DNA of 60,698 bases from IMG/VR virus record IMGVR_UViG_3300018481_000007, positions 1 through 60,698 of that record; one strand, written 5' to 3'. The notes beneath the pieces were generated by a model. The model saw only the letters and a list, made by a program, of their open reading frames with translations, was not told where the DNA came from and did no database searches. Below are positions 3,689 to 57,317 of the stretch, in pieces (positions within the stretch are counted from its first letter, which is position 1; the number at the start of each line of letters is the position of its first letter). The DNA comes from a virus (Duplodnaviria; Caudoviricetes). Both the position numbers and the translations under genes were made by a program.

Positions 3689-4291
3689 ATGCCACTGACC
3701 AACGCCCAGATCAAGCGTCTCCTCACCCCCGTCATCCCCTCCCGCGTCGAGCAGGTCCGGGGACAGTCCTACGTCCCGCAGTTCGAGGTGCGGGCCGAAC
3801 TGTCCCGGGTCTTCGGCTTCGGCAACTGGGACTCCTCCATCCACGACATGACCCTCATCTACGAGGAGCCGGAGGAGCGCGAGAACGGCAAGACCTACTG
3901 GAAGGTCTGCTACCGCTGCGCCTGCACCCTGACCATCCGCGACTACGACGGCAACGTCGTCTGCACTCAGACCGAGTGGCACGCCGAGGAGTCTGCACCG
4001 CAGCCCTCCCGTGGTGAAGCCCACGCCCTTGCCCTTACCTCGGTCGAGTCCTACGCCTTGCGCCGAGCCTGCATCAACCTCGGAGACACGTTCGGCCTGC
4101 ACCTGTACCGGAACGGCCAGTTGACCCCGCTGATCAAGGGGACGCTGCAGACCACCGACGACGAGAGCCCGCTCTACGACCCCCAGACCACCCCCACCCC
4201 GGTGCTGACCGAGGAGCAGAAGACCAACCTGGCGAACGCCCTGGGAGCGGTCGAGGTGCCTCAGGAGCCCGCTGAGAGCGTGCCAGCATGA
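3689..4291 (+). CDS. Rad52/Rad22-family ssDNA annealing protein
   Basis: SYV...VRAELSRVFGFGNWDS...A...VESYALRRACINLGDTFGLHLY. Confidence 0.85.
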   Translation: MPLTNAQIKRLLTPVIPSRVEQVRGQSYVPQFEVRAELSRVFGFGNWDSSIHDMTLIYEEPEERENGKTYWKVCYRCACTLTIRDYDGNVVCTQTEWHAEESAPQPSRGEAHALALTSVESYALRRACINLGDTFGLHLYRNGQLTPLIKGTLQTTDDESPLYDPQTTPTPVLTEEQKTNLANALGAVEVPQEPAESVPA

Positions 4292-42149: not shown

Positions 42150-42156
42150 GCAGTAC

Positions 42157-42272
42157 GGGAGCACAGCCCCAGGGCTGTGCTCCCAGCATGGCAGCCCGCG
42201 CCATGCGCGCTAGGAAAGCACTAGCGCCGAACCCCCCGGGCTGCTGTGTTGGGAGTGAGCGCCGCTCACCCG
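42157..42272 (+). ncRNA. Candidate structured RNA element
   Basis: Several adjacent hairpins plus a 19-bp helix 42180-42198/42237-42255 with three G-U pairs. Confidence 0.4.
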
Positions 42273-42291
42273 CTACTGAGAGGAACCTGGA

Positions 42292-42501
42292 ATGTCCGAC
42301 CACAACTCACCCGAGCACCGATACGGAGACTGGGGCTGCCCGTGCGAAACCTGTGAACCTTCCGCGTCGATGCGCCAGACTCCCGTGTTCGCGGTCCGCC
42401 CGCCGTGCGAGGAGTCTTGGCCTTACCCGTGCGACTGTCAGCCATGGGCACGCGCTAGCGCCGCTCACACGTACGTTCCCTTCCACGTCCGTGGACTGTA
42501 G
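42292..42501 (+). CDS. Small Cys-rich hypothetical protein
   Basis: GAGGA SD; CPCETC, CDC; followed by a hairpin. Confidence 0.4.
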   Translation: MSDHNSPEHRYGDWGCPCETCEPSASMRQTPVFAVRPPCEESWPYPCDCQPWARASAAHTYVPFHVRGL

Positions 42502-42517
42502 GACCGTAGGACCGCAC

Positions 42518-42552
42518 ACGACCCCCGACCGCCTAGCGCGGTCGGGGGTCGT
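42518..42552 (+). terminator. 15-bp stem-loop
   Basis: ACGACCCCCGACCGC / GCGGTCGGGGGTCGT. Confidence 0.65.
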
Positions 42553-42606
42553 TGCATGTCCGGGTGACGCCGCTGTTAGTCCAGCTCCCGTACGAACCTC
42601 CGCCTC

Positions 42607-42714
42607 CCTGGCCGCGTCGGTTTCCTACCGACTCCTGGCCGCGTCGGTTTCTTTCCTCCCTGGCCGCGTGTCGGTTTCTTTCCCACCGAGCTCGGTGGCG
42701 GTTTCTTTCCCACC
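42607..42714. repeat. Four imperfect direct repeats plus a 16-bp palindrome
   Basis: CCTGGCCGCGTCGGTTTC at 42607 and 42634, variant at 42659, core at 42699; CCACCGAGCTCGGTGG at 42683-42698. Confidence 0.85.
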
Positions 42715-42873
42715 CCCGATTCGTTCGGGCGGAAACCGCCGGCACCGCCGCGCCCCGCGCGCGCACCACCACCACCCCCGCGCGACCGCCGCGCCGCCGC
42801 GCGCCGACAGATTCTGGTCAATGAACGTCAACGAACGGGGGCCGGTATTCCAGTCAATGAATGTCAGGTCAAG

Positions 42874-42902
42874 TTGACATAGTACGAGCAACCTAGTAAA
42901 CT
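42874..42902 (+). promoter_or_regulatory. Early promoter TTGACA-N17-TAAACT
   Basis: Near-consensus; flanks shared with the promoter at 47718. Confidence 0.85.
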
Positions 42903-43009
42903 GTAGTTTGAAGTGGAGGACTCTGTCCTCACCCCAGCCCCCGGTCGGATGCCGGGGGTTGCTGCGTTCTACCGGGACTTAGGCAACCTAAGTCCGAAAG
43001 GAGCAAGCC

Positions 43010-43204
43010 ATGTCTGACACCGATGTGCACGCCGCACACGCCGAGACCCTGGAGTTGGGTCACTACCGCCGGGTCGTCCGCGAGGAGACCCGCTACCTCA
43101 TCGACGCGCTGCACGCCCTGCGCAACGGCAGCCCCGAGGTGACCGAGGAGTTCCTCGACCGCGCTGTCCTCCACCTGTCCCGCCTGTCCAACCCCACCGC
43201 TTAG
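43010..43204 (+). CDS. Hypothetical protein
   Basis: AAGGAGCAA SD; stop codon lies in a 13-mer. Confidence 0.75.
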   Translation: MSDTDVHAAHAETLELGHYRRVVREETRYLIDALHALRNGSPEVTEEFLDRAVLHLSRLSNPTA

Positions 43205-43232
43205 TCAACCTAAGCAAGAAGGAGCAACCACC

Positions 43233-52623: not shown

Positions 52624-53067
52624 GTGCTGCCACGAGTAGCAGTCGAGTGCCGTGTGGTGGCGGAGCCGGAGTTGCGATTCAGCAACTCCGGCGTCGCCGT
52701 CGCCAAGTTGCGGGTGGTCGCGGCAGACCGCCGGCTGAATCAACAGACCAACGAATGGGAGGACGCGGACACCCTGTGGCTGGATGTCACGTGCTTCAAG
52801 AAGTTGGCCGAGAACGTGGTCGAGTCAGTAGCCAAGGGGGATCTGCTGCTGGTCACGGGCAAGTTGAAGACGGACGAGTGGACCGACAAGGACAGCGGTC
52901 AGGCTCGCTCGAAGATCGTCCTGCTCGCGGACGTGGTGGCTGCCAGCCTCCAGTTCCGCACCATCCCGCACGGAGGAGGGCAGGCTGCACGGCAGCAGCC
53001 AGCCAGCCAGCCGTACCGGGCACCGGCAGAGCAGGCCTACTCCGGAGCGGACGAGCCACCGTTCTGA
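52624..53067 (+). CDS. ssb: Single-stranded DNA-binding protein
   Basis: EPELRFSNSGVAV...W.D...W..VTCF..LAENV.ES..KGD; DEPPF tail. Confidence 0.95.
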   Translation: MLPRVAVECRVVAEPELRFSNSGVAVAKLRVVAADRRLNQQTNEWEDADTLWLDVTCFKKLAENVVESVAKGDLLLVTGKLKTDEWTDKDSGQARSKIVLLADVVAASLQFRTIPHGGGQAARQQPASQPYRAPAEQAYSGADEPPF

Positions 53068-53088
53068 GTTAGGCGAACTAAGCACGAC

Positions 53089-53122
53089 CCGCTAGCCCTC
53101 CCGTTTTCGGGGGGGCTAGCGG
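53089..53122 (+). terminator. Stem-loop after ssb
   Basis: CCGCTAGCCCTCCCG-TTTT-CGGGGGGGCTAGCGG. Confidence 0.75.
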
Positions 53123-53160
53123 CATTTCAGGAGCAACCAACAACTGGAAGAAGAACAACC

Positions 53161-53940: not shown

Positions 53941-54433
53941 GGACCGGAGCCATCGCGTGATGAACTCCAACGCTCTGACCCTGGTCACCTACCTGGAGGG
54001 CAAGTACCGGGAGCGTGACGACCTCGGCTACAGCGTCGACAGGATCGCTGAGGATCTGGACTGGAGCACGACCAAGGTGCGCAACGTCATCGACTGGTCG
54101 CGCAACCGGATGCTCGACTCGCGGTACATGATCCATGCCTTCCGGGGCAGTCACAACCACAGTCGGTGGTACTACAAGAAGCCGACGCCGGACGAGGCTC
54201 TCATCTACGAGCGGGCTCGCGGCAAGGACGTGGCGCGGCGTGCCAGTCACGTGCTGCTGCTGGTGCGCAAGCGGGCGACCGAGTTCGGGGTGACCAGGGA
54301 GACCCGGAAGACCTCGGCTGCCTACGTGGAGTGCCTGCGCTGGCTGCGGGAGGCCGGAGTGGAGGAGGCCGAGGTGTTCCTGGAGGAGGCTCTGCAGGAT
54401 CTGGCCAGCACCAACGGGCATCACGCAGCGTAG
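53933..54433 (+). CDS. Putative winged-helix protein
   Basis: YSVDRIAEDLDWSTTKVRNVI. Confidence 0.65.
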   Translation: MSRDRSHRVMNSNALTLVTYLEGKYRERDDLGYSVDRIAEDLDWSTTKVRNVIDWSRNRMLDSRYMIHAFRGSHNHSRWYYKKPTPDEALIYERARGKDVARRASHVLLLVRKRATEFGVTRETRKTSAAYVECLRWLREAGVEEAEVFLEEALQDLASTNGHHAA

Positions 54434-54468
54434 GTGACGTAAGGTTCCTGCACTGATATAATGCAGAA

Positions 54469-54512
54469 AGAGGCGGGAAGTCTCGGGTGTGGCGACCAGA
54501 CTTCCCGCCTCT
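54469..54512 (+). terminator. 15-bp stem-loop
   Basis: AGAGGCGGGAAGTCT / AGACTTCCCGCCTCT. Confidence 0.65.
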
Positions 54513-54614
54513 CTTGTCTTCACGCGCGCCCACACCCGGATGAAGATGGTGTCGGTTCTGTGAAGTCAGGCTTAGGCAACCTAAGATTTTCATCAACCAA
54601 CAGAAGGAGCAGCA

Positions 54615-54902
54615 GTGACCGCTGTAATTCAGGACAGCACGGATCAGGCAGAGAAGGACAAACTCATGGGACAGGCGTACTCCGCTGCCCAACGGGATCT
54701 GCGAGAGGCCCACAAGGACGAGTTCAACGGCTACTACCAGAAGCAGTTGGCCGAGCGTGGCATCGAGTGGACCCCGCGCAAGTCGAAGCAGGAGCAGGCT
54801 CTCGACCAGATCCTGACGCTGTTGCAGGAGAACCCGGAGTTGGCTGAGCGGCTGATCGAGCGGCTCGCTCCGGCCAGTGCCGACGAGGTCGCATCGGCGT
54901 AG
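54615..54902 (+). CDS. Hypothetical helical protein
   Basis: 13-mer and AAGGAG SD upstream. Confidence 0.8.
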   Translation: MTAVIQDSTDQAEKDKLMGQAYSAAQRDLREAHKDEFNGYYQKQLAERGIEWTPRKSKQEQALDQILTLLQENPELAERLIERLAPASADEVASA

Positions 54903-54914
54903 GGTCACAGATGT

Positions 54915-54953
54915 TTGAAGGCCCGCTCCCCGGATGTAGGAGCGGGCCTTCAA
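54915..54953 (+). terminator. 15-bp stem-loop
   Basis: TTGAAGGCCCGCTCC / GGAGCGGGCCTTCAA. Confidence 0.7.
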
Positions 54954-54959
54954 TCGAGG

Positions 54960-55430
54960 AGCAACCAACCCATCGAACATCCACTCACTGGAAGGAGGTA
55001 AGCACCACCCGGGGAAAGGAACCCGGTTTGCTTCACCGCTGCGCATTGCCGTGTGCGTAACCAGCGGGTCCTGTCCATCCGCTCGTGAAAGCAGTCCCCA
55101 TGCTACTCACACCGACGTCAGTCGACATAAGCCCATGTCACCGATAGGTTGGTGGAAGGTTTTGACCCCGCATCCGTTAGCGCGGACCGGGGTCTTGGTC
55201 GGTGGAACAAAGCGAAACACCGACGCGCACAGTCTACTGGTACGGACCAGTTCTGCGCACCCCGGAAAGGACTACCCGCTCGTCGGGGATGCCTCCCTGT
55301 TCCCCTCCGGCCAGGCCACTCACCCTCGTGGGAGTGACGGCTTGCTGATGCAACAACCGGAGATGTCTTGCAGGGCGTTGACCGACGGGACCACCCGTAC
55401 CAAGGGAAGGATCTGCCCACTTCCCACCGC
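54960..55430 (+). ncRNA. Candidate large structured non-coding RNA
   Basis: No convincing CDS; more than 10 nested and adjacent helices, some with G-U pairs. Confidence 0.55.
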
Positions 55431-55565
55431 CCAAACCTGACCCCTCTTAGATCGTCTAAGTCAAGACCCACCCCCACTGGCATGTCGCTTGCCGTAGCGG
55501 CAGAGTCAGACAGCACCACCCAGTCCCCTCAGGAGCAGCCACATGTCCTTCACGACCCCACTCGC

Positions 55566-57170
55566 ATGACCGCCATCGAGACCGTCACCGCCCGCCTCGA
55601 CCGGGTACAGCGGAACGGCACATCCACTCTCGCCTCCTGTCCCGTCTCCTCGCACGGACGAGGCAACGGTGACCGCAACCCCTCCCTCTCCGTGACCGAG
55701 CAGCACGGCAAGGTGCTGCTGAACTGCATGTCCGGATGTCACGTCCAGGACGTGATGGTCGCGCTCGACCTCGACTGGGGTGACCTGTTCGACGAGCCGA
55801 TCACCAACAGCAAGGGCGTGATGGTGGCCGAGTGGCTCTACACCCTGCCCGACGGCAGCGACCACCTGGTGGTCGAACGGTGGAACACCCCTGGGGGTGG
55901 TAAGCGGTTCGTCCAGCGACGACCGGGACACACCGCTGCCGAAGGTCTGGGCTCGGGGTTCTGGAACGTGCTGTACCGACTGCCGAAGGTGATCGCGGCG
56001 GCGAAGGCGGGCGAGCCCATCTGGATCGTGGAGGGGGAGAAGTGCGTGGCTGCGGCCGAGCGCCTCGGACTCACGGCCACCACCGGACCTGGCGGGGCGA
56101 AGAACTGGAAGGACTACTACGGCAAGTGGCTGGTCGGGGCACCGGTGGTGAACATCGTCAGCGACAACGACGACGTGGGCCGGGCCTACGCCAGCATGGT
56201 CGCGGCCTCGTTGAAGGGCCGGGGGATCAAGACCAGGACGTGGGCGGTCGCGGTCCCCGGGGAGAAGGCCGACCTCTACGACCACGTGCTCGCGGGCAAG
56301 GGTGTGGCCGACCTGGTGCCGACCAGGCTGAACCAGTTCAGACCCGAGGGCAGCATCGCGGGCTGCCTGCTGGGCAAGGAGTTCCCACCGGTGGAGTGGG
56401 TGATCAGGGACCTGATGCCGATCGGGTTCACGGTGCTCGGCGGGGCACCGAAGGTGGGTAAGTCCTTCCTCGCGCTCGATGCCGCGATGAACGTGGCGAC
56501 CGGCGGGCAGTTCATGCACACCCAGCAGTGCGAGCGGGGCTCGGTGCTCTACCTGAGTTTGGACAATGACGCTGAGTGGCGGCTGCAACTACGGCTGCGG
56601 CACCTGCAGATGCAGTACGGGGTGAGTCTGGCCGACACCGACATCGAGTTCCACTGCGACTTCCCGACCGGAGAGGCGGGCATCCAGGGGATCGCGGAGT
56701 GGTGCGCCGAACGGCGGGACGAGGGGAAGAAGCCACTGCTGGTGGTGGCCGACACCATCGGCAAGGCCGAGCCCAACTTCGACGGCAGCAACGCACGGGG
56801 TGAGACGTCCAACGGCGGCTACCAGGGCAGCACCCAGAACCTGAGCAAGTGGTCACGGCTGGCACTGGAGCAGCGGATCGGAATCCTGGGCGTGCACCAC
56901 ATCCGCAAGTCCGGTGACGACGACTGGACGAACCGGTTCATCGGCTCGCAGGGGATCGTGGCCACCGCCACCACGCTGATGATGCTCGACCCGAAACAGC
57001 GAGGCTCCAGCGAGGGGGTCCTGCACGTCACCTCACGCGACGCGGGCGACCACGAGTTGGAGGTACGGCGGGACGGCTGGTCGTGGCAGTTGATCGAGGA
57101 GGCCAAGGGTGAGCGGATCGTCACCAAGGGCAACGGTGGCCTGAGGGTCATCCCGGGAGGACAGGCTTAG
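55566..57170 (+). CDS. DNA primase-helicase (Zn-binding, TOPRIM, AAA_25/RepA-like)
   Basis: CPVSSH..D.NPSLSV...NCMSGC; IVEGEK; DNDDVG; GAPKVGKS; VADT; VHHIRK. Confidence 0.9.
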   Translation: MTAIETVTARLDRVQRNGTSTLASCPVSSHGRGNGDRNPSLSVTEQHGKVLLNCMSGCHVQDVMVALDLDWGDLFDEPITNSKGVMVAEWLYTLPDGSDHLVVERWNTPGGGKRFVQRRPGHTAAEGLGSGFWNVLYRLPKVIAAAKAGEPIWIVEGEKCVAAAERLGLTATTGPGGAKNWKDYYGKWLVGAPVVNIVSDNDDVGRAYASMVAASLKGRGIKTRTWAVAVPGEKADLYDHVLAGKGVADLVPTRLNQFRPEGSIAGCLLGKEFPPVEWVIRDLMPIGFTVLGGAPKVGKSFLALDAAMNVATGGQFMHTQQCERGSVLYLSLDNDAEWRLQLRLRHLQMQYGVSLADTDIEFHCDFPTGEAGIQGIAEWCAERRDEGKKPLLVVADTIGKAEPNFDGSNARGETSNGGYQGSTQNLSKWSRLALEQRIGILGVHHIRKSGDDDWTNRFIGSQGIVATATTLMMLDPKQRGSSEGVLHVTSRDAGDHELEVRRDGWSWQLIEEAKGERIVTKGNGGLRVIPGGQA

Positions 57171-57317
57171 GCGATCTAAGGAGCAGCAGACCCCACCACG
57201 TGGACAGAATGGTGGGTAGCAGGACCGAACAGAGCGAGCCCCTACCTGGGTGCCAGGTACGGGGTTCGTGCCCTTAGAGGGGCACACAGCGGAGCAACCA
57301 CACGAGAGGAACGACCC

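Follow-up and report, generated by a model that had tools for sequence, protein, structure and literature searches.

A conserved structured element beside the replication genes of soil actinophages, probably a new family of phage-encoded RNA

Introduction

Abundant non-coding RNAs are produced by Cluster A mycobacteriophages (L5, D29, StarStuff), and the sections of PMC5712189 devoted to them describe a right-end Pleft RNA of about 500 bp and an RNA from the 63-64 intergenic region of D29. Here we report on an element located in the gap between the gene of a small protein, P0002, and a primase-helicase gene, in the virus record IMGVR_UViG_3300018481_000007 (Duplodnaviria; Caudoviricetes). The whole record, 60,698 bp with direct terminal repeats and a completeness rated 100%, is called the window hereafter. 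Judging from related contigs, the element is probably a new family of phage-encoded structured RNA, of a kind without known function. It resembles the Cluster A RNAs, as those sections present them, in coming from an actinophage, in spanning a few hundred bases without a conserved open reading frame (ORF), in lying among early or non-structural genes, and in having no known function (PMC5712189). Unlike these RNAs, for which the same sections give RNA-seq and northern blots, the element was found by conservation of structure and is known from sequence alone (PMC5712189). No sequence similarity links the two: blastn ('distant') of positions 54900-55570 against 50,697 phage records gave no match.

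GOLLD and ROOL are often carried by phages, and ColE1 RNA II and its plasmid relatives are structured primer RNAs of several hundred nucleotides, found beside replication functions. Unlike RNA II, the element showed no features of an origin, no antisense partner and no signals of an RNA-DNA hybrid, and it varies in place and orientation with respect to the replication genes. With GOLLD and ROOL, ornate RNAs in the part of PMC12286853 that concerns them, it would share the character of a large multi-domain structured RNA without known biochemical function (PMC12286853). It differs from them in being smaller (about 170-490 nt), in having no tRNA neighbours, and in its distribution, so far one soil-phage lineage. 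These closest known systems are analogies, not relatives, and no description of the element was found in Rfam or in the literature on phage non-coding RNAs, supplementary files being outside the scope of that search.

The motifs that flank the element also have a described analogue. Cluster K mycobacteriophages carry Start-Associated Sequences (SAS) and extended SAS (ESAS), whose function is not known according to the parts of PMC3203893 that treat them.

Results

Helices kept by compensatory change

Related contigs were gathered from viral and metagenome collections by protein-anchored searches with the primase and P0002. Beside the P0002 gene, homologous elements were found in six or more distinct contigs of related phages; one further case is probable and two are tentative. 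Three contigs whose primase is 83-85% identical to that of the window (L045, L046 and L047) have the element at the same place (nhmmer, E about 1e-35 over 54958-55310, with another match at 55443-55569). L004, with a primase 53% identical, matches window positions 55142-55395 (E 3e-13). A covariance model of the region of hairpins H1 to H3 (R1; features are listed in Table 1) matched L003 at E 9e-5, identically in L049 and L055, and L005 at E 1.7e-4; with filters off, it also matched L073 at E 0.05. The tentative cases, L054 and L070, have a shorter region behind the same hairpin and GGAGCAACC, with the motifs UAGGUUCG, AAGCGAAC and CGGAAAGG. The element extends over about 54958-55445. A preliminary description of this locus had proposed a structured stretch at 54960-55430; the part of it conserved across lineages is about 55142-55395 (~250 nt), rather than the stretch as a whole.

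Four helices, H1, H2, H3 and P5, are kept by selection through compensatory change, in sequences that are otherwise diverged (54-73% identity). All four correspond to pairings of the preliminary description, P5 being the stem that closes its nested domain at 55275-55389. In H1, all 63 cells are standard pairs in six distinct sequences, and 8 of the 11 pairs are changed on both sides; none of 500 shuffles was as good, and slid partners were 22-54% paired. H2 is invariant in the four closest sequences. A soil contig carries two double changes in it, T55203G with A55219C and G55204A with C55218T, both of which restore pairs, while in L003 and L073 its place holds different stems (pairing read by eye) with a loop that still ends in GAAACA. 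H3 shows G55227A with C55256T, turning G-C into A-U, in L045/L047 and in soil contigs, and in L004 its inner stem ACUGGU/ACCAGU has become ACCGG/CCGGU. Over H1-H3 in the closest set, 94.8% of cells are paired, against 87.2% in shuffles and 27-40% in slid controls. These three hairpins are almost purely Watson-Crick, with a single G·U among the 63 cells of H1.

The long-range helix P5 is paired in 24/24 cells in three sequences, with 4/8 pairs changed on both sides (arms CUCGUCGG/CCGACGGG, CUUGCCGA/UCGGCAGG and CUCGUUGG/CCAACGGG), and the interior of the 3' domain it closes is barely alignable. Its second pair is an invariant U·G. Since the other strand would have a mismatched C·A here, the pair speaks for an RNA of the + strand.

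A fifth helix, P1, encloses a variable 5' domain (54976-55141) that is replaced by unrelated sequence in other strains, and its 5' strand takes in CAACC of GGAGCAACC. In L004 and L005, which have no GGAGCAACC nearby, we read the same P1 3' strand (AGGGUUCC, AGGGUC) as pairing with a local GGGACCCU, GACCCU. A pairing proposed earlier, CACCGAC/GTTGGTG (55110-55154), is not supported: it competes with P1, is the poorer of the two, and has a 5' arm not kept in L045. Two other early proposals lack support as well: by our reading of the alignment, L045 offers nothing that corresponds to the long-range GGTCCTGTCC/GGAAAGGACT pair, and GGGAAG/CTTCCC is not conserved. CCGCTG/CAGCGG gained one compensatory change, in L047 (CCACTGG/CCAGTGG), and the hairpin AAGCA/TGCTT with CCGGG/CCCGG (55000-55033) is present in the sequence. 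When all five helices are forced, the fold lies 6.2 kcal/mol above the minimum free energy (MFE).

A non-coding gap with marginal folding energy

The gap, 54903-55565, is real and non-coding. Its 663 bp, announced as about 660 bp without a coding sequence ahead of the primase-helicase, carry no GC signal by codon position, except for a weak rise at 55180-55420. Flanking genes have a third-position GC of 0.82-0.93, and in the window, at 66.7% G+C, this signal is strong in protein genes generally (0.8-0.95). The GC content of the gap is slightly low (0.58-0.66). Of 11 indel runs between the window and L045, 2 have a length divisible by three, and the codon phases of the longest ORF hold 23, 28 and 25 of 86 substitutions. 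Thus neither 55051-55440 on the + strand nor 55118-55519 on the - strand behaves as a protein-coding gene by composition, indels or substitutions.

Both bounds of the gap seen at the outset were right. The hairpin at 54915 is a perfect 15-bp stem (54915-54953), and relatives have at its place a GC-rich hairpin of different sequence. The 13-mer at 55447 lies in the palindrome 55446-55460, which is repeated genome-wide.

Folding energy gave a less clear picture of what had been called a densely structured RNA. For the 471 nt at 54960-55430, z was -2.31 on the + strand, where 2 of 100 shuffles were as good, and -1.05 on the - strand; for the 265-nt core it was -1.1 on + and -1.4 on -. The core and six homologous regions, folded on both strands, ranged from -0.3 to -4.2 with no consistent strand preference, and these scores were not used as strand evidence. 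The structure is therefore more than chance by covariation, and only marginally so by energy. Because the energy is only marginal, the case rests on comparison with relatives.

Searches against known families

Rfam 15 (4227 models, including GOLLD, ROOL, HEARO, OLE, raiA, RNase P, 6S, tmRNA, riboswitches and group I/II introns) gave no match at gathering score in the whole window. With E up to 10, only ar14 (15.9 bits versus 58.8) and ZFAT-AS1_3 (13.9 versus 70) appeared in 54800-55650, and seven homologous loci gave matches at noise level, none recurring between loci. ARAGORN found no tRNA or tmRNA gene in the window. The lack of tRNA, tmRNA, RNase P or intron hallmarks stated beforehand thus holds. 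The label of unclassified large phage RNA is partly supported, in that the element is non-coding, conserved in related phages with compensatory changes, marked by a strand-specific U·G and without an Rfam family; as to size, only ~250 nt are shared across lineages.

A group I intron was considered and rejected: the upstream gene has its own stop (54902), the primase has its own start led by a ribosome binding site (RBS), no intron model matched (E up to 10), and in L004 the core lies between other genes. Two further ideas were dropped. Pairing of the invariant UAGGUU in trans with the start motif or the palindrome would involve only 4 bases (AACC:GGUU) complementary in all lineages, already paired in cis. 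A leader peptide starting from GGAGCAACC would have short frames in L003 (ATT start) and L070 (GTG start), and none in the window, L045 or L054.

Presence, absence and mobility among relatives

Every lineage that bears the element has it next to the P0002 gene, and the gene that follows varies by lineage: it may be the primase, directly or behind a zinc-ribbon ORF, a DnaB-like helicase behind a 79-aa ORF, or a basic ORF of 109 aa. The last case is L004, where the core is inverted and flanks the P0002 homologue on its other side. In L005 the core is likewise inverted, across P0002, ahead of a different gene. In soil contigs of related strains, taken from four DNA runs, 54979-55072 are swapped for 97 other letters and 55124-55442 for about 500 other letters. 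Such wholesale replacement of parts is the mosaic exchange usual for phage genes. The element thus moves between gene contexts as a unit, like a cassette.

Behind P0002, the element is missing from L006 and also from L051. In the latter, only 167 nt follow the P0002 homologue and the primase carries an N-terminal extension; L048 and L052 have the same extension, and their short contigs show no P0002 gene. This extension of the primase-helicase is of ~180 aa (genes at 89-2317 in L048, 2458-4590 in L051 and 82-2028 in L052). A zinc-ribbon ORF (CxxC ... WxHxxC) was seen directly upstream of the primase-helicase in L045 (about 2684-2890), L054 (about 2680-2840) and L006 (3607-3864), and the window is without it. 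In L003, the 3' part of the gap (3760-3990) is conserved with L050 (1-330), with stems of differing interiors such as CGACGA...TCGTCG, so that lineages of the L003 type may have a structured 3' domain of their own.

Exact-pattern scans of the viral collection brought no further lineage. The pattern CCGGGGTCNTGGTCGGTGGAA occurred in the L004 contig alone. The H2 pattern was found in 4 stretches and the junction pattern in 16, with no wider similarity by nhmmer except in the L004 contig; the contexts of the junction-pattern matches, inside coding sequence, were read as chance. The pattern ACAGGTTT...CCCGC...CGGG gave 49 stretches, of which R1 matched 0 of the 48 searched (E up to 1, default filters), the full hairpin being present among the 49 only in the L004 and L073 contigs. 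A primase profile run over one genome per prokaryote species returned 3 distant loci, none with the element.

Gene-type punctuation around the element

A 15-bp palindrome, CTTAGNNNNNCTAAG (consensus CTTAGGCAACCTAAG, with variants), is present in 30 copies in the window, against 0.14 expected. Its sites (for example 42978, 43200, 44752, 47068, 48781, 54571, 55446 and 57166) are mostly at gene ends or starts, and its asymmetric centre follows gene direction. This layout resembles that of stoperators or of extended start-associated sequences. Relatives have other palindromes at the same spots, such as GTTCACTGAGTGAAC in L003 and GTTTAGTCACTAAAC in L054, each lineage with its own one before the primase.

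A second motif, GGAGCAACCA, occurs with at most one mismatch in 18 copies, all on the + strand, against 4.4 expected (for example at 43221, 47089, 48802, 53130, 54958, 57291 and 60006), in most cases 6 nt behind the palindrome and 0-3 nt ahead of an ATG. As a start-associated motif it is common to the whole phage group, being present in L003, L004, L045, L054, L070 and L073 too. Many early genes carry the complete cassette of palindrome, 6 nt, AGGAGCAACC, 0-3 nt and ATG. It is seen at 43200, 44420, 47068, 47905 and 48781, and at 42978 and 49651 in a shortened or variant form. At three places, 53130, 57291 and 54958, GGAGCAACCA comes after a GC-rich hairpin but has no start codon next to it. 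Ordinary genes start 20-30 nt on from the first two (53083-53139 and 57255-57300), whereas the copy at 54958, in the same composite at 54915-54967, leads into the element, and relatives keep GGAGCAACC behind a hairpin at the element's head. The element thus occupies a gene slot, with the punctuation of a gene.

The arrangement of these flanking motifs is of the SAS/ESAS type, by analogy: as in Cluster K phages, within the account of these repeats in PMC3203893, an RBS motif lies just before starts, often with an upstream inverted repeat, in one orientation and in the non-structural half of the genome (PMC3203893). The likeness is one of punctuation only. The sequences are unrelated (GGAGCAACC and CTTAGGCAACCTAAG here, GGGATAGGAGCCC and 17-bp repeats in Cluster K), and, unlike in that account, one copy of the start motif here heads a non-coding element and pairs inside it (PMC3203893).

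Genome and gene neighbourhood

The element lies in the rightward, non-structural half of the genome, within a replication module whose order is SSB, two proteins without a family, P0002, the gap and the primase-helicase. An AlphaFold model of P0002 has four helices (pLDDT 80); it had no match in the PDB (best E 4.7), and the protein gave nothing above threshold in Pfam and PHROGs. Ahead of the primase, the short upstream ORF is kept in L045-L047 and in soil contigs (peptide MSFTTP...; about 2975-3007 in L045), and L004 has an analogue of 38 codons that ends in GTGA (3874-3989). This suggests translational coupling of primase synthesis. A single promoter-like site was found by consensus scan in 54400-55800 (0.1 expected), and it is the likely source of a transcript entering the element.

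Pfam searches on 63 further ORFs identified terminase, lysin, tail parts, a Rad52-type recombinase, a cytosine methylase and a weak ParB_N match, and among these 63 no reverse transcriptase, RNA-processing enzyme or DNA polymerase; ten ORFs scanned separately had no DNA polymerase family either. The nearest cultured phages (tblastn with the primase) are below 33% identity and infect Actinobacteria, being phages of Microbacterium, Arthrobacter, Gordonia and Streptomyces.

Another stretch without a convincing ORF, of ~830 bp, is found at 42150-42980. It holds an iteron-like array at 42603-42714, with at least 3-4 direct repeats of a unit containing CGGTTTC(T/C)TTCC at 27-bp spacing. An inverted copy is present at 42725-42741, and the stretch also has several perfect hairpins, among them 42157-42184 and 42518-42552. 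The array is a candidate DNA-binding site, whether origin, partition site or regulatory region.

Table 1. Coordinates of the element, its helices and the neighbouring features in the window.
Feature	Position	Strand	Remarks
SSB gene	52624-53067		first in the order of the replication module
Promoter-like site, sigma-70 type	54434-54462	+	GTGACG-17-TATAAT; consensus scan only; upstream of the P0002 gene
P0002 gene	54615-54902	+	small helical protein, 95 aa; precedes the gap
Stem-loop	54915-54929/54939-54953	+	perfect 15-bp stem; directly 3' of the P0002 gene; no U-tract after it
Copy of GGAGCAACCA	54958-54967	+	RBS plus spacer motif; no start codon follows; CAACC is part of P1
Helix P1	54964-54975 with 55142-55153	+	11/12 pairs; in the unconstrained MFE fold of 54955-55445
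Hairpin H1	55164-55194	+	7 + 4 bp; GACCCCG/CGGGGTC
Hairpin H2	55198-55224	+	7 bp; GTCGGTG/CACCGAC; purine-rich loop GCGAAACA ending in GAAACA
Hairpin H3	55225-55258	+	5 + 6 bp; GCGCA..ACTGGT/ACCAGT..TGCGC; conserved AGUCU internal loop
Junction CCGGAAAGG	55262-55270		purine-rich; after H3
Helix P5	55279-55286 with 55382-55389	+	8 bp, long-range; closes the 3' domain 55279-55389
Palindrome CTTAGATCGTCTAAG	55446-55460	+	3' limit of the element; one of 30 genome copies
Upstream ORF	55543-55569	+	eight codons; good RBS at 55531-55535; stop overlaps the primase start (ATGA); read from sequence
Primase-helicase gene	55566-57170	+	matches to TOPRIM-type primase, AAA_25 and DNA primase/helicase PHROGs

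Discussion

The reading that we favour, though tentatively, is that the element gives a self-contained structured RNA product, which would bind a protein through its conserved purine-rich single strands, the H2 loop and the junction. Transcription would start at the promoter-like site before P0002 and run through the stem-loop downstream of this gene, after which the RNA would fold, with P1 closing the variable 5' domain, then H1, H2, H3, the purine-rich junction and the 3' domain closed by P5. The RNA may then be processed or stabilised out of the transcript of the replication operon, its single-stranded purine-rich stretches probably binding a protein, and it could act in trans. A link with replication, beyond the address of the element, is likewise conceivable.

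Several points weigh against this view. The element is known only as DNA: neither a transcript nor either of its ends has been seen, and no RNA run holding it was listed among public sequencing runs. Folding energy is barely beyond chance in such GC-rich DNA and is weak evidence. The family is small, with six firm sequences of which some are closely related, its distribution is narrow, and it has no cultured host. The rows of the H1 alignment were picked by position and shape, so that the count of paired cells is partly ascertained. L054 and L070 were not found by R1 and were assigned by eye from short motifs. The near-pure Watson-Crick character of H1-H3 is also what would be expected of a DNA hairpin or of a sense/antisense pair. 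The scan of 54400-55800 revealed no promoter belonging to the element itself, and no recognisable terminator is present at its downstream limit. Finally, in every lineage a co-oriented gene begins about 60-150 nt after the element, as it would behind a leader.

These last two points favour a cis-acting structured leader, which would work only on its own transcript and set the stability, processing, read-through or translation of the following gene, in the window the upstream ORF with the primase-helicase, possibly by hiding or exposing the gene-start motif GGAGCAACC in P1. It is in keeping with such a leader that the 5' strand of P1 belongs to the RBS-type motif of the genome and that a translationally coupled upstream ORF precedes the primase. 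We nevertheless consider it doubtful, as the family of the downstream gene varies by lineage and the core has moved to another gene in L004 and L005. No ORF begins after the GGAGCAACC copy at 54958, and the next RBS in the window lies about 150 nt beyond the fold, on the far side of the 55446 palindrome. No expression platform of the riboswitch kind was identified, nor was a downstream RBS or terminator seen to offer an alternative pairing, such pairings not having been searched systematically. To us a stand-alone RNA product seems likelier than a switch that serves the primase gene specifically.

Rather than an RNA, the helices could be kept for a DNA or R-loop structure, as an origin or as single-strand hairpins for loading or priming by the primase-helicase, possibly via a primer transcript. 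The location between the SSB-side genes and the primase-helicase agrees with this, as do hairpins so nearly Watson-Crick that both strands, or the DNA, might have to fold; moreover, with no DNA polymerase family among the scanned ORFs, the phage must recruit the host replisome at some site. Such a signal is nonetheless improbable here. There are no iterons in the gap, only two-copy repeats of 9-13 nt, its GC content is only slightly low, the array at 42603-42714 is a better candidate for a DNA site, the other strand has a mismatch in place of the invariant U·G of P5, the element is missing from L006 and L051, which are closely related and have the same primase-helicase (the short contigs of L048 and L052 show none either), and L004 and L005 have the core in another place and inverted. 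The suggestion of a structured origin or primer RNA in the preliminary description gains nothing from these observations. Counter-transcript control of replication genes occurs in many plasmids, and the scarcity of G·U pairs in H1-H3 would also suit hairpins needed on both sense and antisense RNA, as in an antisense target controlling the replication genes. A weak match to the Rfam family ctRNA_pGA1 goes in the same direction. It falls on the minus strand of the element in L054 and below threshold (22 bits versus a gathering score of 45, E 4.4), but it is at noise level and was obtained at 1 of the 7 loci searched. With no minus-strand promoter-like site in 54400-55800, a strand-specific U·G in P5 and a core inverted relative to the replication genes in L004/L005, we regard this explanation as very unlikely. 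At the other extreme, the element might have no function and be a decaying former gene slot with chance hairpins in a GC-rich genome. MFE z-scores of only -1 to -2, the high mosaicism of the region, replaced in some strains, and its absence from some relatives would fit, but four helices kept by compensatory changes at 54-73% identity, and slid-partner controls that fall to 22-54% paired, already disfavour this view and leave it little credit.

A more specific proposal, improbable as it stands, is that the element represents a new class of large phage RNA gene within the replication machinery itself, its RNA being a cofactor which, together with the ever-adjacent P0002, marks the start site of the primase-helicase. 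The phage would then use a primer or loading scaffold made of RNA instead of a protein-bound DNA origin, and exchange it as a cassette.

Few structured RNAs of several hundred nucleotides with multi-helix junctions are without an assigned function, and past examples of such large RNAs proved to be ribozymes, guide RNAs or RNA-only assemblies. The present element, well supported by compensatory change and found within the replication module of soil actinophages from an uncultivated lineage, is a concrete RNA candidate for covariance-model libraries. It also offers a handle on the abundant non-coding transcripts of actinophages and on their repeated gene-start motifs.

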